A stretch of DNA of 46,299 nucleotides from a virus. The notes beneath the pieces are model-generated. The model saw nothing but the letters and a program-made list of their open reading frames with translations, did no database searches and was not told the origin of the DNA. Position numbers and translations under genes: made by a program. Of the stretch, positions 280 through 13,364 are shown piece by piece. The stretch is taken from UHGV virus genome UHGV-0173986; one strand, written 5' to 3'. The number at the start of each line of letters is the position of its first letter. The first letter of the stretch is position 1.

Positions 280-1407
280 TCATAAGGCCACAGTTGTCCA
301 CCCCTTCCCTCGATCATCATGGTACCTATCCGTTTGTTGTTGAGTTTTATGTCCAAGTAAATCTTTCGTGTTTATGCCCTGGGCTTTATATAACCGCTCG
401 GAAAGCGATCTTTGTTCATGGAAAGTTGCCGGTGTACCTTGTCCCCAGTCAATATCTGCACTGTCTCTTGCCTTGCTGAAATTCATGGTCAGTGTTCTGG
501 GTTTCACCTGTGCTCCTCGCTCAGCCTGTGAGGTGGTTCTAAAGAAATGAACCAAATAAGGGCTTACTGCATAATCCCGGCAACGACTGATTACATCTCG
601 GAGGCTCCAGTTGATTGCGTTGCAACGCAGAGCTAATGGTATAGCGATTTTGCTTCCGGTTTTCTCTTGCTCAACGTGTAGATGATCGTCCCAGATGTCC
701 GAGAATTTCATACGGGATATATCACCTAGTCGCTGTCCTGTTACTATGGCTAAAAGCATGGCGTTCCCCATGTATTTGTGATTTTCATCTGCTATATCAA
801 AAATCTTTTGCCATTCCTCCAGAGTGAGGCGCTGGCGAGTGATTTTTCTACGAGGTTGTTTAGTTGCTAGTGCAGGGTTATAACCAGGAGGTACTTCACC
901 CGCATGCTGAGCTTCTTTAAAAACATCTATTAGGACAGAGCGAATGACCTGAGCCATTCTGGGTTGTCCCTCCGCTAAATATTCATCAAGAATTTGCGCA
1001 ACATCTCGAACATTGACAGCGGATATTAATTTCATTCCTACCCGTTCCTTAAGCAGAGATACTGGTTTTGCTTTTTGTTTGATAGTGTTTTCTTTAATAT
1101 CTCCGGACTTTAATCTTTCCTGCTGAATCTTCCAGTAGCGCTCAAGCCAGGTGTTAGTTGATATTGCTTTTCCTGTGCTGGTGGAAATTCTGTCAGTGAT
1201 TGCCATTATCTGGCGGGTTTGTTGTTCCGCCAGTCTTTTATTTGCTTCAATAGCTATTGCCGAGGCCTCTGCTTCGTCTGTTCCTAGACTATGAAACTTA
1301 CCAGTTATCGGGTGCTTATAACGCCAGTATACTTTATTAACCTTTCTACTGAAGAGCGGGTATAAATTTGGAATTGATATGTTATTTTTACGTGGTCTGG
1401 CAGCCAT
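280..1407 (-). CDS. int: Phage tyrosine integrase (e14 IntE-like, icd-specific)
   Basis: 375-aa ORF with the C-terminal tyrosine recombinase catalytic region (...HLGHKTQQQTDRYHDD...). Adjacent to the icd 3' end and overlaps xis. Confidence 0.9.
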   Translation of the reverse strand: MAARPRKNNISIPNLYPLFSRKVNKVYWRYKHPITGKFHSLGTDEAEASAIAIEANKRLAEQQTRQIMAITDRISTSTGKAISTNTWLERYWKIQQERLKSGDIKENTIKQKAKPVSLLKERVGMKLISAVNVRDVAQILDEYLAEGQPRMAQVIRSVLIDVFKEAQHAGEVPPGYNPALATKQPRRKITRQRLTLEEWQKIFDIADENHKYMGNAMLLAIVTGQRLGDISRMKFSDIWDDHLHVEQEKTGSKIAIPLALRCNAINWSLRDVISRCRDYAVSPYLVHFFRTTSQAERGAQVKPRTLTMNFSKARDSADIDWGQGTPATFHEQRSLSERLYKAQGINTKDLLGHKTQQQTDRYHDDRGKGWTTVAL

Positions 1408-3798: not shown

Positions 3799-4203
3799 TT
3801 AGTCTTTTTCGAATGGAGGGGGGATTTTTCGCTTACTCAGGAACTCAGCCATAAACCGATCTAACTCTTCCAGTCGCGTTCTCGCTAGTTCAATAAATCT
3901 GTCCTGCTCCACTTCAGGAAGTTGATCAAATACTTCTAATAACTCTAATTGCTTCTGATTTAGTACTGTTTTGCTGGCTGTGACAGCCTGTAATGAAGAC
4001 TCTTCTTCATCCGTCATAAAGAACCAATACAGTGGTTTTCCAAGTGCTTGCGGGAATAACTCTAACTTTTCCTTTCGCGGGAAGTTACCTGTATTGCACC
4101 AGTTACTGACTGTCTGAGAGTTTACACCCACTCGCCGGCCTAACTCAGATTGAGATATACCAGCCTCATCAAGAGCTCTTAACAGCCGTTCTTCGAAGTT
4201 CAT
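3799..4203 (-). CDS. DicA-like (XRE-family HTH) prophage repressor
   Basis: MNFEERLLRALDEAGISQSELGRRVGVNSQTVSNWC... HTH, and the C-terminal ...LNQKQLELLEVFDQLPEVEQDRFIELARTRLEELDRF resembles Qin DicA (...LSPKELELLELFNALPESEQDTQLAEMRARV...). Divergent from a cro-like gene. Confidence 0.7.
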   Translation of the reverse strand: MNFEERLLRALDEAGISQSELGRRVGVNSQTVSNWCNTGNFPRKEKLELFPQALGKPLYWFFMTDEEESSLQAVTASKTVLNQKQLELLEVFDQLPEVEQDRFIELARTRLEELDRFMAEFLSKRKIPPPFEKD

Positions 4204-4236
4204 ATTCGCATCCAAATCAAACCAGTAACCAAGCAT

Positions 4237-4551: not shown

Positions 4552-5106
4552 ATGCAAACCATATCTTTCAAAAATCATACTTCTATGTTGGGTATGCAAC
4601 AGAAAACGGAAAATCAGTATTCACCACGGCGTCGGGACAGCGTTAAGTGCCGGACCATCTTTGCAGCAGTTCGTGAGTGGGAGGCAACCTTACCCGGGCG
4701 CGCGCAGGAGCACGTCGCACAGCTGGTGGCCGAACAGTGGGAGAAACAAGACGGTCGCGGCATCAGCGTTAATAAACAAAATCTGTACCGCTACCTGAAA
4801 AACGAATCTGGATCAGAGAAGTACACCAGTTACGTCATGCAGCTTTCAGGAGCGATCGCTGATGCAATGCCTATTGAGATTGCGCGCAAACACGGATTGA
4901 AACGTGGATTGACTGAAAGCGAGCTGGTGGCTCAAGCAATCAAAGAGTGTAGCGAAGCGCACCAGGCAAAATTGCTTGGCGCTCCGTTGCAAAAGTTAGA
5001 GCGTGAAATTCGGGAGGCAGCAATTGCACTTTTTAACATGCTTCCTGCAGATGCGGCGGGACCACTACTGGCGAGCATAAGCGCCGTAGCGCCACAGTTT
5101 TTTTAA
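4552..5106 (+). CDS. CII-position regulatory protein (YmfL-like, e14 family); function uncertain
   Basis: 184-aa ORF directly after cro, similar in size and position to e14 YmfL. No motif I could confirm. Confidence 0.4.
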   Translation: MQTISFKNHTSMLGMQQKTENQYSPRRRDSVKCRTIFAAVREWEATLPGRAQEHVAQLVAEQWEKQDGRGISVNKQNLYRYLKNESGSEKYTSYVMQLSGAIADAMPIEIARKHGLKRGLTESELVAQAIKECSEAHQAKLLGAPLQKLEREIREAAIALFNMLPADAAGPLLASISAVAPQFF

Positions 5107-5150: not shown

Positions 5151-6170
5151 ATGAGCATTGATGCAATGCGATGGGCCAAAAAAGTCAAGACAGGGAAGTC
5201 CTCTGCAAAAGCTGTTCTGACCTGGATGGCCGACATGTGCGGAGCTGATCTCTGTGCTTTTCCATCCATTCCTGCGCTGGCTGAAGCAACTGAGCTGGAT
5301 AAGAAAACGGTCCAGTCGAGCCTGCAGTATCTGGTTTCGATCGGGCTTATTGAAGATACAGGTGAACGGCGTGGAAAGACTAAACAAATCCCGGTTTACA
5401 GGCTTCTTGGTGTGGAAGAAAGCGTTGCCGAAATTGAACACACCCAAAAACGGGAACATTACCAAAAACGGGATCGTTTAAACACACCCGAAAACGGGGT
5501 TGTTACAGCAGAAAAGGCACCCGAAAAAGGGACTGTTTCCTGTACACAAAAAAAACAAACGATCCCGTTTTTTCCGTCAAACGATCCCAAAAACGGGATC
5601 CGGAATCTACCAGAGGAACCAAAAGATATAACCCCCACACATAGGGTTTTGGTCGGACCAGTTGTGCCTGACTATCCGAATCAACCGGGAATAGTTCCTG
5701 GTGAAACACAAGCATTCGGAAAATTTGCGATGTATTTCGGGTGGAAACCTTCCGAGGATTTTCCCCGACTGGCAACGATTTGGGGAATGCCATTAAGACC
5801 GGGGATAAATCTTGCTGCCGAGTTAAGCAGCTTCATCGCGTACTGGCAGGCTGAAGGCAGGGCGTTTCACCAGGTCCAGTGGGAGCAAAAACTAGCAAGA
5901 CATCTTAACCGTGCGGAAGTCCGCCAGAAAAAACCAGTGAATGGGGGTAACGATCATGTGGGAGTACGAGCAGAGCCAGCAGCATCCAGAGCTGTTCAAC
6001 AGATTCGAGCCGCCCGTGAGCAACGGTTGCGAGTTGCAGGAACAGACGGCCGTAGAAACGGCGTGGCGCCTATGGGAAGTGATGGGCGAAATCTTTTCGA
6101 ACCGATGGATCCTGAAGAACGGAGAGGAACCATCAGAGCTCTGGATCGCTCAGATTGGGTCGATGAGTGA
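5151..6170 (+). CDS. Replication initiator O-like protein (N-terminal HTH replication-protein domain plus C-terminal DnaT-like ssDNA-binding domain); contains the ori iterons
   Basis: The N-terminus [31 protein letters not shown]...[28 protein letters not shown] matches the phage replication-protein HTH. The C-terminal [63 protein letters not shown] matches the DnaT-like domain. The R/G-rich tail after about residue 260 may be out-of-frame read-through. Confidence 0.75.
5443..5603. repeat. Replication-origin iterons inside the O-like gene: five or more copies of CC(A/G)AAAA(C/A)GGG(A/G)(A/T)C plus one inverted copy
   Basis: cccaaaaacgggaac, accaaaaacgggatc, cccgaaaacggggtt, cccgaaaaagggact, inverted aaacgatcccgtttttt, cccaaaaacgggatc. 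This is analogous to ori-lambda lying within O. Confidence 0.7.
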
Positions 6171-6627
6171 AGCCCAGATTACGCTGGTTTGCCGGCAGTG
6201 CATGGAGCGTTGCGCCGCGGGCAGCACATGGCCGCCGGATCTCGCTGAGTTCGTTGCGCTGGTATCTGCCAGCGGTGCTAACCCATTCAGTCTGACATCC
6301 GATGCAGTGATGGCGGAGTACAAACGCTGGAGAAACGAGTCTTACCGATATTCGGGAAGCGACAAATACCCATGGAAACAGGATGTTCTGTATCACATTT
6401 GCATTGAGATGCGCAGAACTGGAGTTGAGAGGAACCTGACGGAGGGAGAGCTGAAAAAACTGGCAGAAAACTTACTCACGAAATGGACCAAACACCTAGC
6501 TAACGGGTTTTCGATTCCCCCGATTCGTCGGCAGTTGGCAGCACCGAGGCATCCAGCAGGGCCGACGCCAGCGCAGGTTCTGATGGAAGAGTACAAACGC
6601 CGCAAGGCGGCAGGTTTAACCAAGTAA
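5956..6627 (+). CDS. Lambda P-like replication protein (helicase loader); 5' end overlaps the O-like ORF by about 215 nt in another frame
   Basis: ...[83 protein letters not shown] aligns with lambda P ...LPSPGQFVAWCREEASVTAGLPNVSELVDMVYEYCRKRGLYPDAESYPWKSNAHYWLVTNLYQNMRANALTDAELRRKAADEL. Start at MWEYEQ has a GGGGTAA RBS. Confidence 0.6.
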
Positions 6628-7081: not shown

Positions 7082-7293
7082 TTATGCCTAAAATGGAATC
7101 AACAGCATCTGGTACGGGATGTCAAAGCTAAGTTCAAATATTCCGGGATGAGGCAAAGCTGAGATGTCCGCTGAGTGCCAGGAGCAGACATTAAGGAAAT
7201 TGTGATATTTTGAGTGATGACAAGCCGTTTCCACTCAATTTTTAATTCTCAACACGCCCACTGCTGCAACTCCAGAAAATGATAGATATAATG

Positions 7294-7552
7294 TTCACAC
7301 ATTTACTTTATTAATGCTTCTCGCTGAGCGTTGCCGCATAACGCTCGGTGGATAGGCATTGATGCGTTTCAAAGCTCTGCTAAACACTGCCTGTGAGGCA
7401 TAGCCGAGGCGGAGAGCGACTGTGTAAATTAAGTTCTTATCGTGAATAATTAAGTGGCCAGCGAGACGCATTCGTACTTCTCTTGCATAGCGTTGGACAC
7501 GCTGCTGAACGGAGTAATGGTTGTGACGGCCATTGCCACCTCAGTCGCGGCA
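7294..7552 (-). pseudogene. C-terminal remnant of an AraC/XylS-family regulator (HTH_18 half only)
   Basis: Minus-strand translation ...YAREVRMRLAGHLIIHDKNLIYTVALRLGYASQAVFSRALKRINAYPPSVMRQRSARSIN is the second AraC HTH. An upstream in-frame stop is present and no N-terminal domain. Embedded in AT-rich DNA. Confidence 0.5.
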
Positions 7553-8028
7553 CTGACCCCAAGAAGAAGTCATTTGTTGCGATGACAAGTGGCTTGGAAA
7601 ACTATATAGACGTGATGAGATCTCAATGGGTATTGCTCACAGCCTTGAAAGAGGAGGTCTTCTTCGAAAAAAAATCAATGGCCTAGTTTTGATTGATAGC
7701 TACGCCCTGATCAATAGGTTGGGCTTCGGTGAAGCCCGGAGTGATTTGTGCAATGGGTGTTTGCAGAAAATTGAGAATGCTTAGGCCGAATGACCAAAAA
7801 TCAGAAAGTCTTTTTGGGGGCGGGAGCGCCATCTTCTGTAAAGCTTGCGGTCCATATGATGGCATACTGGCTTGTGGCGCGACTCTTCTGTCACTAGGCA
7901 GCGTACTGTGTACTAAGCATTACGTCCAGACTCGTCTTAAGAAGATGGCACTCATTCCTCGAGGTCAAGAAGCGCGGAAAAAAGACGAAGCGATGCCAGG
8001 AGGACAATGGTCAGTGATGATCCAGTAG

Positions 8029-8295
8029 TCAGCTGGTTTGTATGCGATCATAATATTCGATGATTTGCAGCGCAACTGCAGCAATTTGCACAGCTTCTTC
8101 TCTGCTGGTACCGGCTGCTTTTCCCCCGAAACGGTCATGGAGAACGGCCTGATGAAACTCTCCCACTTCCTCCCCAAGGATAGCCCCCCAGATGAAAGGA
8201 TCCAGATTGCGGTCTGCTCCCCATTTTGCATCCTGCCGTTGCATTTCAGCTAACACATCTTTCAGTGCTTCGGTTTCTTGATGTTTATATTTCAT
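8029..8295 (-). CDS. MazG-like (all-alpha NTP pyrophosphohydrolase superfamily) small protein
   Basis: 88 aa. ...WGAILGEEVGEFHQAVLHD...REEAVQIAAVALQIIEY resembles the MazG EExGE and downstream acidic helix. Weak RBS. Confidence 0.4.
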   Translation of the reverse strand: MKYKHQETEALKDVLAEMQRQDAKWGADRNLDPFIWGAILGEEVGEFHQAVLHDRFGGKAAGTSREEAVQIAAVALQIIEYYDRIQTS

Positions 8296-8440
8296 GATTC
8301 CCGTTACGTACCCGTCATTTTATGCGCTATCTTAAACATTAAATCTATGCTGAGTCCATTGCGATGACGCATCGCATTTTGTGATTGAACGGTAAGTTTG
8401 CTATAAACGTAGCAATGACAAAAATTTAAAGTGGATAATC

Positions 8441-8767
8441 TTGTACATTACCTTTCAAAGCAAAAAGTTAAGAGCTCTTTGTGAGAGTATGCACAATGCG
8501 AATGAGAACCTTGGTGAGAAACTAGCATCCAAGCTACGCGCACGCCTTTCCGATATCACCGTGGCGGACAATATTTTAGCATTGCCCGTCGGTTCGCCGG
8601 AGGTATGCTTTGAGGAAGGGGAAGAGTGTATTACAATTACCCTTTTGGGCGATAAAAAAATGGGATTTGTTTGTGGGAATACGATTCAGCCAAAAAATCA
8701 AGACAATACGATTGACTGGTCCCAGGTCAGCCGGATACGGTTAGTGTTCATAGGTGATGTGAAATGA
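8441..8767 (+). CDS. HigB-like (killer-protein, RelE/ParE superfamily) toxin-like protein; TTG start
   Basis: (M)YITFQSKKLRALCES...KLASKLRARLSDITVADNILAL parallels the HigB N-terminus MIKSFKHKGLKLLFEK...VDRINDRLQAIDTATEIGEL. Its stop overlaps the next start (ATGA). Confidence 0.45.
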   Translation: MYITFQSKKLRALCESMHNANENLGEKLASKLRARLSDITVADNILALPVGSPEVCFEEGEECITITLLGDKKMGFVCGNTIQPKNQDNTIDWSQVSRIRLVFIGDVK

Positions 8768-9846
8768 TGGTAACGCAGGACTTCCAGCCTGACTGGGTAT
8801 CTCCACCCGGTGATACGATTATAGATCTGATGGATGAACACGGAATTTCTGATGAGGAGTTGAGTAAAAAAATAGGCTTGTCCCTTGATCGGGGTCAGCA
8901 ACTTCTTGAAGGGAAACTCCGACTGAATCCGTCCCTGGCCGACAAGCTTGAAGAGCTGTTCAGTGTGTCGACGGACTTCTGGATCAGGCGCGAAGATGCT
9001 TATCGCAGGCAAATAGAACATATCCAGAAAGTTAACAGCGACTGGCTGGAATCATTGCCCGTACGCGATATGATGGAGTTTGGCTGGATCCCGAAAACCA
9101 CAACGCGGGAAAGTAAATTCCGACACTGTCTGTCGTTCTTCGGTATACACTCCGTGAGTGAGTTTTATCACAAAATACATTCTGATGCTCCACTGGTCGC
9201 CTTTCGTAAATCATTGAATCTGACGACTGAGCCTGTCGCTGATCTGGTATGGCTGACCCGTGCAGAACAGTTGAGTGCAAAACAGGTCTGCGCAGAATGG
9301 AATAAAAAGGCGCTGCAGGCGCTTTTGCCGGAGCTTCGTAGAGCAACAAACGAACCTGATATGGGAATTTTTATCCCTCACATTCGGCGGCTTCTCGCGA
9401 CTGCCGGGGTTTCGCTGATCGTGTTGCCAACGCCCAAGGGATGCCGGGCCAGTGGTGCCACCTGCTTTTTCACTCCAGACCGCGCCACGCTGGTCATGAG
9501 TTTCCGCTATCTTACCGATGACCATTTCTGGTTTACGCTGTTTCATGAGATTGGGCATCTCATTCTGCACGAGGCAGTGCAGGTTCGTGCGGAAGGTAAA
9601 GAAGGCCTGTCGACAGAAGAGGAAAAAGAAGCCGATACATTTGCTGTAGACGTCCTCATTCCTGAGGAATACAGGCAGCAACTCAGGCGCTATGGTGTTC
9701 GGCACTGGAGGGACATCGTCCGCACGGCCCGTAAAATAGGCGTATCAAAAGGGATTGTTCTCGGGTACTTACAACATGAGGGCAACATTCCTTTTTCTCA
9801 CCTTAACCGGCTTAAGGTGAGATACAGTAAAGAAGACATTGTATAA
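8764..9846 (+). CDS. Fusion protein: N-terminal HigA/XRE-type HTH plus C-terminal ImmA/IrrE-family zinc metallopeptidase (DUF955/COG2856, HEIGH motif)
   Basis: N-terminus ...WVSPPGDTIIDLMDEHGISDEELSKKIGLSLDRGQQLLEGKLRLNPSLADKLEELFSVSTDFW (HigA-like HTH). C-terminus ...FWFTLFHEIGHLILHE...EEKEADTFAVDVLIPEE (HExxH plus downstream E). Translationally coupled to the upstream HigB-like gene. Confidence 0.7.
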   Translation: MMVTQDFQPDWVSPPGDTIIDLMDEHGISDEELSKKIGLSLDRGQQLLEGKLRLNPSLADKLEELFSVSTDFWIRREDAYRRQIEHIQKVNSDWLESLPVRDMMEFGWIPKTTTRESKFRHCLSFFGIHSVSEFYHKIHSDAPLVAFRKSLNLTTEPVADLVWLTRAEQLSAKQVCAEWNKKALQALLPELRRATNEPDMGIFIPHIRRLLATAGVSLIVLPTPKGCRASGATCFFTPDRATLVMSFRYLTDDHFWFTLFHEIGHLILHEAVQVRAEGKEGLSTEEEKEADTFAVDVLIPEEYRQQLRRYGVRHWRDIVRTARKIGVSKGIVLGYLQHEGNIPFSHLNRLKVRYSKEDIV

Positions 9847-9848
9847 GT

Positions 9849-10793
9849 TCAGCCGCCAAAATAGACGTAGCGATCAGGTGACTTCTGCCAGTTACACAGC
9901 GCGTCTTCAATGACCTGCATCCTGAGATATGGTGCAGGGATAATTTCGGCAAGTTCAGCCAGTTTATCATTCAGAGTCTCTAGCCTATCACCTGCGCTCC
10001 GGCTGTTACTAAACAGCAGCCGACTCCCCTGAAGAGGGCCAGTAGCTCCCTTCAAAAAAGCATGCCCCGGTTCTGCCTCGATGAGTCCGGTTTTTCTTAG
10101 CATAGTCAGGTAATCAAATCGGGCGGTTCGTCCGAATGAAACCACCGCATTCAGGCCTGAATACAGCAATTCGAAAAGAGTAGCAGGTGTTGCCGCGAGG
10201 CTCCTTGCTTCTGCAAACCGGGCCTCGTGGCTGTATGTTGCACCAATAAATCCGAGATATGAACGAAAAACGACAGGTATAGAACGACGTGAATGATATT
10301 TTTTCGTTTCATATTTGCGGTGGTTACCATACTGTCTTAGACTGCTATGTAGGGTCAGCTCATCAGAAACGCTGGCAAACCACTGTTCAAATGCATCAAA
10401 GTCATCAGTTATGGCATCCCATGTCCACGTCTGGGTACCTAGTCCACTGTAAATATCGCGGCACAAAACCCAGCCTGTTTTACTACTCCGGCCAAAATGC
10501 GTGGCCAGAAAAACCAGCCAGCAGGCTTCGTCATAGTTGTTTTCACGCAGATGCAGACACGCAGCACGAAGAGGATCAAATAAATCTGAGTTTGGCTCTT
10601 TTCTTAGCGGATTCATATAATCGGTTCGTGATGTCAGCGTTGACATATAGCGAATGCGGCGAATACTGTCAATAATCTGAAAGGCTAATACATTATAGTG
10701 AGCCGCAGAACTCAGTCCGTTTAGGATATGTTTATCGCGACTGAAGTTTTGAAGAGCGGCGACCAACTGGCTTGCCTGACTGTGTCTGTTCAT
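9849..10793 (-). CDS. Hypothetical 314-aa protein, translationally coupled partner of the TS-fold enzyme (function unknown)
   Basis: Start overlaps the stop of the upstream TS-like gene (TAATG). No P-loop or other motif I can name. Confidence 0.6.
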   Translation of the reverse strand: MNRHSQASQLVAALQNFSRDKHILNGLSSAAHYNVLAFQIIDSIRRIRYMSTLTSRTDYMNPLRKEPNSDLFDPLRAACLHLRENNYDEACWLVFLATHFGRSSKTGWVLCRDIYSGLGTQTWTWDAITDDFDAFEQWFASVSDELTLHSSLRQYGNHRKYETKKYHSRRSIPVVFRSYLGFIGATYSHEARFAEARSLAATPATLFELLYSGLNAVVSFGRTARFDYLTMLRKTGLIEAEPGHAFLKGATGPLQGSRLLFSNSRSAGDRLETLNDKLAELAEIIPAPYLRMQVIEDALCNWQKSPDRYVYFGG

Positions 10794-12028
10794 TATATTT
10801 TCCCGTCAAAAATAAATCGGTATTCCTGATTATTCAACGCAGTCAGCTCCTGACGGGCCAGCTCGTTGTGTGCCGACGTATGTGAACGTAACAAAAAATG
10901 GACTTTTATCACGCGCAGAAGATCCTTCCAGTAGTCACTCAAGGGCGTAGTATCGATATTAAATTCCTTGTTTTCCCGCAGAGCCTTTTCTGCTTCAAGG
11001 ATGACTGTAATGTCCTTTAAGGATTGAATTTCGGGCATATCACCCATCACCGGCAAGGTACTCATAAAGCCTTCTTGTCGTAGCGCTTTTACTTGTTCAA
11101 AATGTTCTTCATAGATATGGAGGCTTGAGACGAAGTGATGATAATACCCCAGTTTGCATCCGGTGAGGCGGGCGACCAGTTCCTGCAACATCGTGAAGGA
11201 GAACACATCATGGGGTAAGCCCATAAAGGCATCGTTAGAGCGCATACAGACAAAAAGATGCAATGCATCTTGTCTGACAATAAATTGCAACGATATAGTG
11301 CACGGAATATCGGCATATTCTGTCTGCTCTGGATTACCCGTCACCAGATCTGAGGCATCAAACAGTTGTATCAGCGCGCGTCGAGTAGTTCTTTTCTCCT
11401 GCAGCAGACTGATGACATTTTCCAACTGATTATACAGCCCGTGCATACTAAATAATCTCGGACCGTATCCCCCGTGTATTCTGCCGTCGGATTCAGCGTA
11501 TTTTACGTAGCGAGGTATGAAGTGCCGGATGAAATCGAGATCGTTCTGGGCTGAGAGGTACCATAGCAATTCCCCCAGACAGCTGACAATTTTACCGCGG
11601 GATTCTGTCCTACTTATTCTGCGGCGAGGATCGGTGAGAATCAGGTAGGCTCCCAGAATTTCAATATTTGCTCCTTTAGTGGGAGTATTCCAGAGTCCGC
11701 CAGTAAGGATCGCCTGATGGACATCGTTTAACAGATCGTCAACACATTCAGCCGTCACCAGAAGAGTCATAAACTGCCTGTTATATAATGAATGTAACAA
11801 ATCATTACCACTAGTGCGATAAATAGTCAACATGCCATTAGTAAAAACAGGGCTATAACCGCTATGACACATATCATCAGGTGCGAGGTTTGACACCCAT
11901 GTTTCCTCCATTCCCTCTGGAAGCAAAAAATGTTCACGTAGAATAAGAACTGAGGGACGCAGACGCATGCAGGCCACTCGCCAGGGTATTCCTCCAAATG
12001 AACTGGCCGGTTTCCTAATATCAGCCAT
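10793..12028 (-). CDS. Thymidylate-synthase-fold enzyme with a ~130-aa N-terminal extension (dUMP/dCMP methylase or hydroxymethylase-like)
   Basis: Motifs align with ThyA: KIVSCLGELLWYLSAQND (vs HELLWFLQGDTN), RRALIQLFDASDL (vs RRIIVSAWN), and the catalytic-Cys region IPCTISLQFIVRQDALHLFVCMRSNDAFMGLPHDVFSFTMLQELVARLTGCKLGYYHHFVSSLHIY (vs [66 protein letters not shown]). Confidence 0.75.
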   Translation of the reverse strand: MADIRKPASSFGGIPWRVACMRLRPSVLILREHFLLPEGMEETWVSNLAPDDMCHSGYSPVFTNGMLTIYRTSGNDLLHSLYNRQFMTLLVTAECVDDLLNDVHQAILTGGLWNTPTKGANIEILGAYLILTDPRRRISRTESRGKIVSCLGELLWYLSAQNDLDFIRHFIPRYVKYAESDGRIHGGYGPRLFSMHGLYNQLENVISLLQEKRTTRRALIQLFDASDLVTGNPEQTEYADIPCTISLQFIVRQDALHLFVCMRSNDAFMGLPHDVFSFTMLQELVARLTGCKLGYYHHFVSSLHIYEEHFEQVKALRQEGFMSTLPVMGDMPEIQSLKDITVILEAEKALRENKEFNIDTTPLSDYWKDLLRVIKVHFLLRSHTSAHNELARQELTALNNQEYRFIFDGKI

Positions 12029-12356
12029 TAAAATAGCGCTGTAAACTTCATTACCAAATGCGGCGCGCCTGTAAGGGCCTGACTACAGGTTTAAACACTG
12101 TGCAACCACAAGTCCTAGGTCCGCTCTTCGCTCATAGCGGACCTCCAAATCAGTTAGTTTGTCCGCTCTGTGCCAAGAGCGGAATCTGGAACGCCAGAGG
12201 TAGCAACGTTTCTTATCAAAGGTGTTGATCACCACAAAAATGACTGTATCCCTGTGATAGCGGATTTCGTCCTTTGTGGAGAAAAGATCAATCTAAACAT
12301 GAGCATGGGTTAGCGAAAAGTGGCATTAAACGCTTGAACATTTCACCTAACAAGTA

Positions 12357-12376: not shown

Positions 12377-12395
12377 CTTGCGTGAGGAGCTAGTT

Positions 12396-12629
12396 ATGAA
12401 AGTGGAAATCACAATTGATCGCCAAAAAAAATTGCCGGATGGCGCTGTGCCTGCTCTGGAGAAGGAGCTACTGCGGCGATTGGATCAAAACTTTAATAAC
12501 TGCAGTCTTGTGATTCGTCGGGCCAGCTCCGATGGTTTGACCGTGCTTGGTGGAATGGACGGAGATAAAAAACGTATTGAGGAAATCCTGCAGGACACCT
12601 GGGAAAGCGCTGATGACTGGTTTTGTTAA
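12396..12629 (+). CDS. dinI: DinI-family protein (DNA-damage-inducible protein I homologue)
   Basis: MKVEITIDRQKKLPDGAVPALEKELLRRL...LTVLGGMDGDKKRIEEILQDTWESADDWF closely matches E. coli DinI (MRIEVTIAKTSPLPAGAIDALAGELSRRI...ISEILQETWESADDWF). GAGGAG RBS. Confidence 0.85.
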   Translation: MKVEITIDRQKKLPDGAVPALEKELLRRLDQNFNNCSLVIRRASSDGLTVLGGMDGDKKRIEEILQDTWESADDWFC

Positions 12630-12673: not shown

Positions 12674-12931
12674 GTGAGTAAAAAACAAGAAATGCCGAAC
12701 ACCGGCTATGCAATTATCAGATGCGACGATGGGGTGATCGTTGCTCGTCTGACATCCTTTCCTGTGTGTGAGCGCGCTCTGATGTACCGACGCGGCGATA
12801 CTGTTTCGTTTATGCCTTTGCAGCCGGATGAGATCGTGGGGACTCTCTCTCTATTTTCACAGATGATTGAAAAGGCTAAGTCTGGCGTTGGTTACCAGGT
12901 TCCCCCTGGTTCTGTTACAATCCCGTCATAG
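12674..12931 (+). CDS. Hypothetical protein (about 85 aa)
   Basis: ORF in an operon with dinI. GTG start with GAGGA RBS (alternative ATG at 12692). No recognisable family. Confidence 0.35.
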   Translation: MSKKQEMPNTGYAIIRCDDGVIVARLTSFPVCERALMYRRGDTVSFMPLQPDEIVGTLSLFSQMIEKAKSGVGYQVPPGSVTIPS

Positions 12932-12971
12932 GCCTGAACAACCTATACCTGCTGCGTCGCGGAGAGAAACC

Positions 12972-13364
12972 ATGACGCAAACCCCCGAAGTATCAAAATC
13001 CCATCAGACTGGTGCTCCTTCATCGAGCGCCGGTTTGCTTTCGTCTTCAAAACTAACTTTTCGCCAGCAGGAAGTTTTCGATCTGCTGGTGGCCTACATC
13101 AATCAGCATGGCTACCCACCTACGCTATCTGAGTTGGCCGATATGCTCGGCGTTAGCTCGTCTAATGCTGTCCTGTTGCATCTGCGTGCGTTAGAGAGAA
13201 AAAATTTTATAAAACTCTCTCGCCGTGTCTCAAGAGGAATTTCCATCGTCGGGCGAAAGGAGCCTATGCTCGCCGTGCAGCTGCTGCAGGAAATGATCGC
13301 TGAAGAACCCGGCGCGCGTGAAAGAGCGATTGAGTTTTTGCGACTGTTCGGTGATCAGCCATGA
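12972..13364 (+). CDS. LexA N-terminal DNA-binding-domain protein without the S24 peptidase domain (non-cleavable LexA paralogue)
   Basis: [66 protein letters not shown] aligns with LexA [66 protein letters not shown]. It is 130 aa and lacks the Ala-Gly cleavage site and Ser/Lys dyad region. GGAGAGA RBS. Confidence 0.7.
   Translation: [130 protein letters not shown]

Follow-up and report, generated by a model that had tools for sequence, protein, structure and literature searches.

The window analysed here, the full 46,299 nucleotides of UHGV virus genome UHGV-0173986, is a lambdoid prophage with integrase, CI-type repressor, O/P, terminase, tail and J genes, and its proteins have their nearest relatives in Klebsiella variicola. 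We focused on two coupled genes at positions 8441 to 9846, here called ORF1 and ORF2, which a first-pass annotation made from the sequence alone had described as a HigB-like toxin gene followed by a single protein fusing a HigA/Xre-type helix-turn-helix (HTH) to an ImmA/IrrE-type metallopeptidase, a combination that it took for a toxin-antitoxin (TA)-like pair. The two reading frames, their coordinates, the TTG start of ORF1 and the ATGA coupling were all confirmed in our listing of open reading frames (ORFs). Two enzyme genes follow on the opposite strand, and the locus reads as follows:

8029-8295, minus strand: MazG-like gene, 88 aa, of the small NTP-pyrophosphohydrolase type, divergent from ORF1; RefSeq name 'MazG-like family protein'
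8398-8415: candidate operator palindrome TTGCTA-N6-TAGCAA, 26 nt 5' of the ORF1 start
8441-8767, plus strand: ORF1, 108 aa, TTG start; HigB fold with a degenerate active site (putative pseudo-toxin)
8764-9846, plus strand: ORF2, 360 aa, ATG start; HigA-type HTH, middle region and M78/ImmA peptidase
8794-9012 (ORF2 residues ~11-83): HTH region, followed by the conserved middle region
9481-9759 (ORF2 residues ~240-332): M78/ImmA peptidase
9544-9558 (ORF2 residues 261-265): HEIGH motif
9849-10793, minus strand: aGPT-Pplase clade 3 gene (aGPT-Pplase3), 314 aa; Pfam PF18746 at 1.3e-89
10793-11770, minus strand: thymidylate synthase (TS)-fold pyrimidine-nucleotide hydroxymethylase homologue, 325 aa; Pfam Thymidylat_synt at 5.3e-28

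ORF1 and ORF2 overlap by the 4-nt ATGA at 8764-8767. The aGPT-Pplase3 gene is convergent with ORF2, with 2 nt between their stop codons, and is itself coupled to the TS-fold gene by a 1-nt overlap. The TS-fold frame is open to 12028, but its conserved start lies at 11770, matching the RefSeq coding sequence (CDS) of 978 nt.

Pfam profile searches of both ORFs found two domains in ORF2, HTH_3 on residues 21-73 (E 2.1e-5) and Peptidase_M78 on residues 240-332 (E 2.9e-10), each above its gathering score, and no match in ORF1. When a profile of 30 ORF2-family sequences was compared with solved structures, residues 11-83 matched HigA (2icp, 1.8e-9, and P. vulgaris HigA 4mcx, 1e-8) and residues 256-338 gave a weak match to the CapP protease (7t5t, 0.003). 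Across these 30 sequences, which span 39-87% identity, H261, E262, H265 and E287 never vary and E289 hardly does, and HExxH is kept in 119 out of 119 full-length ORF2 relatives. The peptidase motif is therefore not degenerate, and the fusion of an HTH to an ImmA-type peptidase with an intact HEIGH stands as first described. ORF2 is under strong purifying selection (omega 0.06-0.07). In PADLOC, the PD-Lambda-2_B model matched ORF2 over residues 15-341 at 8e-29, covering profile positions 60-378 of 402, and the capP model matched at 3.5e-10.

ORF1 has no match of its own in Pfam (PF05015 and PF09907 included), NCBIfam or PADLOC, and its assignment came from structure prediction. An alignment of 113 sequences, built from the upstream genes of related loci followed by an alignment search (593 matches), yielded an AF2 model with a pLDDT of 93 and a pTM of 0.85; an earlier model from 9 sequences had been uninformative (pLDDT 58). 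A Foldseek search of the 113-sequence model against the PDB returned P. vulgaris HigB (4ypb) as the top match, with a probability of 1.00 and a target-normalised TM score of 0.73, and the top 25 matches were all toxins of the RelE/YoeB/ParE superfamily. The RelE/HigB fold, on which the HigB-like description depended, thus extends over the whole protein. The first-pass annotation had considered only the N-terminal half to be HigB-like, which is correct for the sequence, where similarity is weak and confined to the N-terminal ~75 residues, but not for the fold. A profile of the degenerate ORF1 clade retrieved zero PDB sequences at E<=10, and hhalign gave only 14% probability against HigB. As sequence profiles fail, we base the HigB assignment on the fold together with transitive homology through a canonical sister clade; one ORF1 relative (P0011) approaches PF05015.

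That ORF1 is a real gene is indicated by its dN/dS of 0.08-0.20 and by an equivalent ORF of ~105-115 aa, translationally coupled upstream of the ORF2 homologue, in 85/86 loci. The TTG start is supported by three residues upstream of the first internal Met (F5, R11 and E15) that are conserved across the 113 homologues, by retention of the TTG codon in the enterobacterial copies and by E. coli TC24, in which RefSeq annotates the corresponding 327-nt CDS. Six residues are invariant in the 113 sequences, and the family comprises 2,608 clusters at 50% identity (E<=1e-3) across many phyla. In the common E. coli form of the locus, RefSeq/PGAP leaves ORF1 unannotated (L088:9033-9462, L120:2597-3062, L121:2597-3062 and L122:2597-3062); the frame is intact and TTG-initiated in the three of these that were checked, and comparison with two of them shows purifying selection. 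The dS of ORF1, ~0.5, is under half that of ORF2 (~1.25) for the same genome pairs; a regulatory or RNA signal embedded in the gene, or a recombination mosaic, might account for this.

The fold is kept, but the active site is not. Four residues, His54, Asp90, Tyr91 and His92, are crucial to HigB (PMC5027501). Aligned with the sister proteins in which HPLKGDR...R...DYH-COOH is kept, ORF1 has Glu54, Phe57, Gly60, Lys73, Asp106, Val107 and Lys108 at the positions of HigB H54, K57, R60, R73, D90, Y91 and H92; three of the four critical residues are thus replaced (His54 by Glu54, Tyr91 by Val107 and His92 by Lys108) and Asp106 is kept. Relative to HigB, ORF1 also carries an insertion of ~16 residues with a conserved P-x(7)-D-W motif. 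We compared the signature in those genome and metagenome loci whose upstream ORF could be aligned, 75 in total. Of these, the 69 linked to an aGPT-Pplase3 gene all have a degenerate ORF1, the catalytic positions varying freely among them, and the full H-x-R-R-D-Y-H signature occurs in 6 loci, every one of which is without the aGPT/TS genes. Since the RNase active site of HigB is lost, ORF1 is, from its residues and predicted fold, most likely a HigB-fold pseudo-toxin and not an mRNA interferase.

A precedent for such a division of roles is PD-lambda-2, which a functional selection had brought to light in E. coli ECOR42 (Vassallo et al. 2022, PMC9519451) and in which the HTH-M78 fusion (B) is toxic alone, the HigB-like protein (A) neutralises it and a third protein (C) is required for defence. 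The description of ORF1 as a HigB-like toxin therefore holds for the fold but is not supported for the toxin, as the critical residues are replaced and as it is the fusion protein that is toxic in PD-lambda-2. These data bear directly on whether the pair is a classical type II HigBA-like module, in which ORF1 would be an mRNA-cleaving toxin and ORF2 an antitoxin and repressor that removes itself by proteolysis on a signal. The likeness to HigBA of P. vulgaris (PF05015/TIGR02607) is clear, with the same toxin-first order and coupling, a HigB fold in ORF1 and a HigA-type HTH at the N-terminus of ORF2, and the sister loci with canonical HigB residues probably do work in this way. However, ORF1 has Glu, Val and Lys where His54, Tyr91 and His92 would be needed, the 69 aGPT-linked homologues are degenerate without exception, and the antitoxin part of ORF2 is extended by ~280 residues that include the metallopeptidase. 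Such a module would also make the HigB-like gene the toxic one, which it is not in PD-lambda-2, and would leave the linkage to the enzyme operon unexplained; we consider it unlikely.

Sister loci that combine a catalytically intact HigB-like gene with a HigA-M78 fusion stand beside other genes (L003:2748-4931 on the minus strand, L074:11171-12385, L114:7082-8785 and L116:7326-8837). Among these neighbours are a type III Res-like helicase, a GIY-YIG/T5orf172 protein and same-strand third genes of 500-570 aa, the last without a match in PADLOC. These loci may be further three-gene systems of the PD-lambda-2 type.

A scan for ORF2 relatives, taking one genome per species, gave 80 loci from Gamma-, Beta- and Alphaproteobacteria, Bacteroidota, Acidobacteriota, Chloroflexota, Planctomycetota, Verrucomicrobiota, Myxococcota and Chlamydiota. 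An aGPT-Pplase3 gene and a TS-fold gene lie convergent after ORF2 in 92 of 111 distinct relatives, and the pair is thus not the free-standing TA unit that the first-pass annotation had supposed. The stop-to-stop gap between the two operons has a median of 2 nt; among 91 non-redundant loci they overlap in 35 and lie within 10 nt of each other in 77, too close for terminators to fit in between. When the 111 distinct ORF2s were placed in a neighbour-joining tree, the 92 aGPT-linked sequences split cleanly from the 19 others, and their clade was recovered in 30/30 bootstraps of a 59-sequence subsample. That the aGPT-linked ORF2s form one clade points to a single origin of the combined arrangement. 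The association extends to viruses, with the cassette present in 22 of 31 viral or prophage contigs that have ORF2 relatives. On these contigs, relatives of at least 31% identity carry aGPT, the TS-fold gene as well if the contig extends that far, and their upstream ORF, where recovered, is degenerate; more distant ones are paired with 'DYH' proteins and accompanied by a third gene on the same strand. Beyond the TS-fold gene, nothing is conserved among the compared loci.

This linkage also speaks to a plain addiction module, in which ORF2 would be a toxin and ORF1 its labile antidote, stabilising the cargo or island without any crosstalk with the enzymes. The toxicity relationship between B and A in PD-lambda-2 and the mobile context described below would both suit such a module. 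Nevertheless, the same two enzyme genes are linked to the pair across many phyla, in a single clade and at near-zero spacing, whereas generic addiction modules swap neighbours freely, as has been noted for ImmA-hub systems (PMC10440598). An addiction module is therefore an improbable account of the pair.

What, then, might the enzymes do? Against solved structures, the TS-fold protein is closest to MilA, a CMP 5-hydroxymethylase that acts in mildiomycin biosynthesis (5b6d, 2.5e-43 over residues 26-298), and the best true TS scored 2.4e-21. Its Cys157 aligns with the TS nucleophile. Its Asp188 aligns with the Asp of MilA and with the Asn of TS at the base-specificity position; in TS, this Asn sets the specificity for dUMP over dCMP. 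Given the closeness to MilA and the Asp at the Asn position, a cytosine-nucleotide (MilA-like) 5-hydroxymethylase is the better prediction for this gene. The RefSeq product name for 10793-11770, 'thymidylate synthase', is probably wrong.

For the other enzyme, the closest guide is the family to which it belongs. aGPT-Pplases are DNA-glycosylase-fold proteins, and those of clade 2 transfer amino acids onto kinase-activated 5-hydroxymethyldeoxyuridine (5-hmdU) in phage DNA (PMC8989533), a study in which clade 3 was not characterised; the aGPT-Pplase3 protein gave no meaningful match to solved structures. The locus resembles phage thymidine hypermodification in pairing a TS-fold hydroxymethylase with an aGPT-Pplase-family protein, and in enterobacteria also in having a MazG-like gene. 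It differs in that its aGPT-Pplase is of clade 3 instead of the characterised clade 2, its hydroxymethylase is of the CMP, MilA-like type, and the 5-hmdU DNA kinase is missing: neither the ORF listing nor Pfam revealed such a P-loop kinase in the core from the MazG-like to the TS-fold gene (8038-11855). About half of the aGPT-linked cassettes have a further gene of ~265 aa, here called gene X, between aGPT-Pplase3 and the hydroxymethylase (for example L014:9981-10826, L023:2444-3244 and L046:10003-10815, plus ~28 other loci). Its motifs GLNPSNREF, CHLDLIPYAT and NHNIQSSFG are strongly conserved; it had zero Pfam matches, kinase families included, and nothing meaningful among solved structures. 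The window is without gene X.

Related enzymes have been placed in defence before. In the accessible part of the DefensePredictor report (PMC13092281), the validated system DS-4 has TS, kinase and hypermodification genes acting in defence, and an aGPT-Pplase system, one of whose genes is homologous to a known defence gene, is listed as predicted only; a 326-aa E. coli 'thymidylate synthase' (WP_000174035.1), which matches in length, is also given there as predicted-defensive.

The distribution of the cassette shows that it is mobile. It was found in 235 of 5,426 complete E. coli genomes, and 231 complete genomes of this species contain a block ~79% identical to the core 8038-11855. In E. coli TC24, Raoultella and Citrobacter the identity is ~92%, over a longer block, 7257-12117. 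The E. coli copies are not in prophage, but adjoin type I restriction-modification (R-M) genes, integrases and tRNA-Leu, and a Vibrio cholerae copy lies beside a HipA module. The cassette is therefore cargo moving between defence-island-like sites and prophages. A megablast search of a phage GenBank collection of 50,697 records gave no match. The MazG-like gene is co-inherited within the shared core and was found by tblastn only in enterobacterial loci and two related viral contigs. Decay of the cassette also occurs, as seen in disrupted and truncated ORF2 copies: in Citrobacter murliniae (L011:8001-9084) the ORF2 frame is broken and a 173-aa ORF remains, and a 217-aa form (P0043, 7 member sequences) is 99% identical to ORF2 over 51% of its length.

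The surrounding prophage contributes these features:

280-1407, minus strand: lambda-type integrase, a prophage gene of the window
3799-4236, minus strand: short CI-type repressor, 145 aa, HTH only
5151-6627: O/P-type replication genes, followed by terminase, tail and J genes
7295-7471, minus strand: AraC fragment, 58 aa; HTH_18 at E 3.8e-6, below the gathering score and covering only the C-terminal part of the profile

Both neighbours named in the first-pass annotation are present, the AraC remnant through this partial HTH_18 match and the MazG-like gene by its RefSeq name; a Pfam scan of the latter found nothing. The AraC fragment lies inside the ~92% block that is shared with islands (7257-12117), and so travels with the cassette and is not the prophage's own. 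Just where that block ends in the comparison with E. coli TC24 and Citrobacter (12117) stands an inverted repeat (12120-12142/12161-12183; 23 nt, 87% complementary, 18-nt spacer) that may be a boundary or recombination element. The description of the region as AT-rich cargo is only weakly true: the GC content here is 0.46-0.50, compared with 0.43-0.54 for the early region and 0.48-0.59 for the late genes.

It had further been suggested that the pair senses prophage induction. ORF2 would then be an anti-repressor of the ImmA kind, cleaving the short CI at 3799-4236 and so switching on the prophage's own induction; the CI has an HTH and is without an autocleavage domain, and ORF2 has a peptidase of the right type. 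However, the same cassette occurs in non-prophage tRNA-Leu/R-M islands and in Vibrio chromosomes, and here it lies 4.5 kb from the CI, inside the 4.9-kb block common to islands. Because the cassette moves among island-like sites and prophages, ORF2 is unlikely to be the induction protease of this prophage, which has a CI-type repressor of its own and DinI-like and LexA-domain genes that suggest another induction route. We thus regard a role as induction switch as very unlikely. The prophage encodes YdaT-like, DinI-like and LexA-DNA-binding-domain-only proteins (4552-5106, 12378-12629 and 12867-13364), and this set, together with the short CI, is reminiscent of antirepressor-controlled (Gifsy-type) induction.

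The first-pass annotation had called the fused design uncommon. It is in fact documented in PD-lambda-2, where it has been validated (PMC9519451), in RosmerTA and in the ImmA hub of NetFlax (PMC10440598). PD-lambda-2 is similar in having a small HigB-like gene followed by a coupled fusion of a HigA/Xre HTH to an ImmA/IrrE domain, with one or more extra genes in the unit. It differs in its A protein, which belongs to PF09907 (HigB_toxin), whereas relatives of ORF1 approach PF05015, and in its C, a same-strand P4-antitoxin-like gene, in the place of which we find the convergent hydroxymethylase/aGPT-Pplase3 operon. No same-strand gene follows ORF2, and the four flanking cassette genes had no match in PADLOC, PD-Lambda-2_C included.

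Other relatives share the logic more loosely. The ImmA hub consists of D25 antitoxins, Zn-peptidase proteins that pair with many toxins (NetFlax; Ernits 2023, PMC10440598), and RosmerTA is likewise defined by its Zn-peptidase antitoxins (Millman 2022). Both join an HTH and a Zn-peptidase with a small variable partner in variable gene order, and have members in phage defence. Fourteen RmrA models in PADLOC match ORF2, mostly around residues 200-330 only (best E 3.6e-10), but no RmrT toxin model matched ORF1; RmrT is unrelated to ORF1, and the RosmerTA unit is without the enzyme operon. CapH/CapP, ImmR/ImmA and DdrO/IrrE share with ORF2 the M78 peptidase with HExxH and a downstream Glu ligand, as well as, by the reading proposed here, the logic of signal-triggered proteolysis beside defence or mobile-element genes. 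In these systems, however, the HTH repressor is a separate substrate, whereas in ORF2 one protein combines HTH and peptidase, and the small partner has a RelE fold.

Taken together, our data suggest that ORF1 and ORF2 may be the regulatory or sensor half of a mobile candidate anti-phage cassette (core 8038-11855) derived from HigBA, a reading built on sequence comparison and analogy to which we give a probability of about one half. We infer that ORF1 would act as a partner and restraint of ORF2, docking on its HigA-like N-terminus as HigB does on HigA. ORF2, a DNA-binding metallopeptidase, would by analogy with PD-lambda-2B be the dangerous or active component that ORF1 holds. The hydroxymethylase and aGPT-Pplase3, with the MazG-like protein in enterobacteria, would stand in place of the third gene of PD-lambda-2 and supply the effector chemistry, in the form of altered nucleotides or of altered DNA bases. 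On a phage cue, the ORF2 peptidase/HTH might then be released or activated, upon which the effector module would be switched on or unleashed. The role in phage defence that the first-pass annotation proposed is plausible on these grounds, considering the R-M-adjacent, island and prophage context and the homology to PD-lambda-2.

A number of observations weigh against a defence cassette of this kind. The PD-Lambda-2_B model scores all tested HigA-M78 proteins alike (1e-26 to 7e-34), ORF1 is without a PD-Lambda-2_A match at E<=1, and PD-Lambda-2_C is not detectable at the locus. Since A and C are not detectable and the B model does not discriminate, the locus is a relative and not a member of PD-lambda-2. 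Moreover, A and ORF1 belong to different HigB Pfam families, so that carrying over 'A neutralises B' to the present pair is an extrapolation. The enterobacterial and Vibrio versions are without a kinase and without gene X, and the chemistry of 5-hmdU kinase and transferase therefore cannot simply be assumed. As for precedence, the aGPT-Pplase system of DefensePredictor may be this very cassette, an identity that could not be confirmed from the accessible part of that report.

The palindrome at 8398-8415 is invariant in 7 enterobacterial loci with differing flanks, which makes it at most a candidate autoregulatory operator of ORF1. TTGCTA-N6-TAGCAA occurs once in the window and is not repeated near the hydroxymethylase gene, and an operator common to both promoters was rejected for this reason. 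Scans for sigma-70 promoters and for terminators were not above shuffled expectation. With no common operator and a promoter scan at chance, control of effector-operon transcription by ORF2 is unsupported; the two halves could instead be coupled by convergent transcription across their 2-nt junction. Another palindrome, TGCGATG-N3-CATCGCA at 8360-8376, is stronger, but was rejected as an operator because the 80%-identity clade does not conserve it; its near-matches in the window are at chance level.

Some of these data could be read in favour of a controller, one that serves a module for modifying self-DNA or nucleotides. The pair would time or limit expression of the enzymes after horizontal transfer, in the manner of restriction-modification C-proteins or ImmR/ImmA-type switches, and host or prophage DNA would be marked by the enzymes, for example for restriction evasion. 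The HTH and the conserved palindrome upstream of ORF1 fit a controller, and convergent abutting operons allow transcriptional interference. Relatives of aGPT-Pplase are phage DNA hypermodification enzymes, and the cassette is often found beside type I R-M genes and on most of the viral or prophage contigs with ORF2 relatives. Yet the effector promoter has no second operator, the megablast search of the phage collection gave no match, and the cassette has no 5-hmdU DNA kinase. In addition, a conserved metallopeptidase and a retained pseudo-toxin exceed what a simple controller would need. We hold a modification controller to be possible but doubtful, and return to the candidate anti-phage cassette as our preferred reading.

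Compared with the literature within our reach, what is new is that ORF1 is systematically a putative pseudo-toxin and that it is partnered exclusively, and from a single origin, with an operon of a MilA-like hydroxymethylase and aGPT-Pplase3. Tentatively, the cassette might represent a distinct and widespread class of immune system, in which a sensor made of a dead HigB and a HigA-metallopeptidase would gate cytosine-nucleotide hydroxymethylation followed by a further transformation or transfer to DNA. If so, the immune effector would be a modified nucleotide or base and not a nuclease, a pore or an NADase, and the pseudo-toxin would be a TA toxin domesticated into a regulatory subunit, with the protease taking the active role. 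If the cassette is defensive, the combination of a MilA-like hydroxymethylase with a clade 3 aGPT-Pplase would constitute a new effector chemistry for bacterial immunity. Thousands of genes that now go under 'thymidylate synthase', 'XRE regulator' or 'hypothetical' would be annotated by characterising one copy, which would also recover the ORF1 copies that annotation has often missed. Finally, sister clades with live and with dead HigB partners provide a natural comparison set for research on PD-lambda-2 and RosmerTA.

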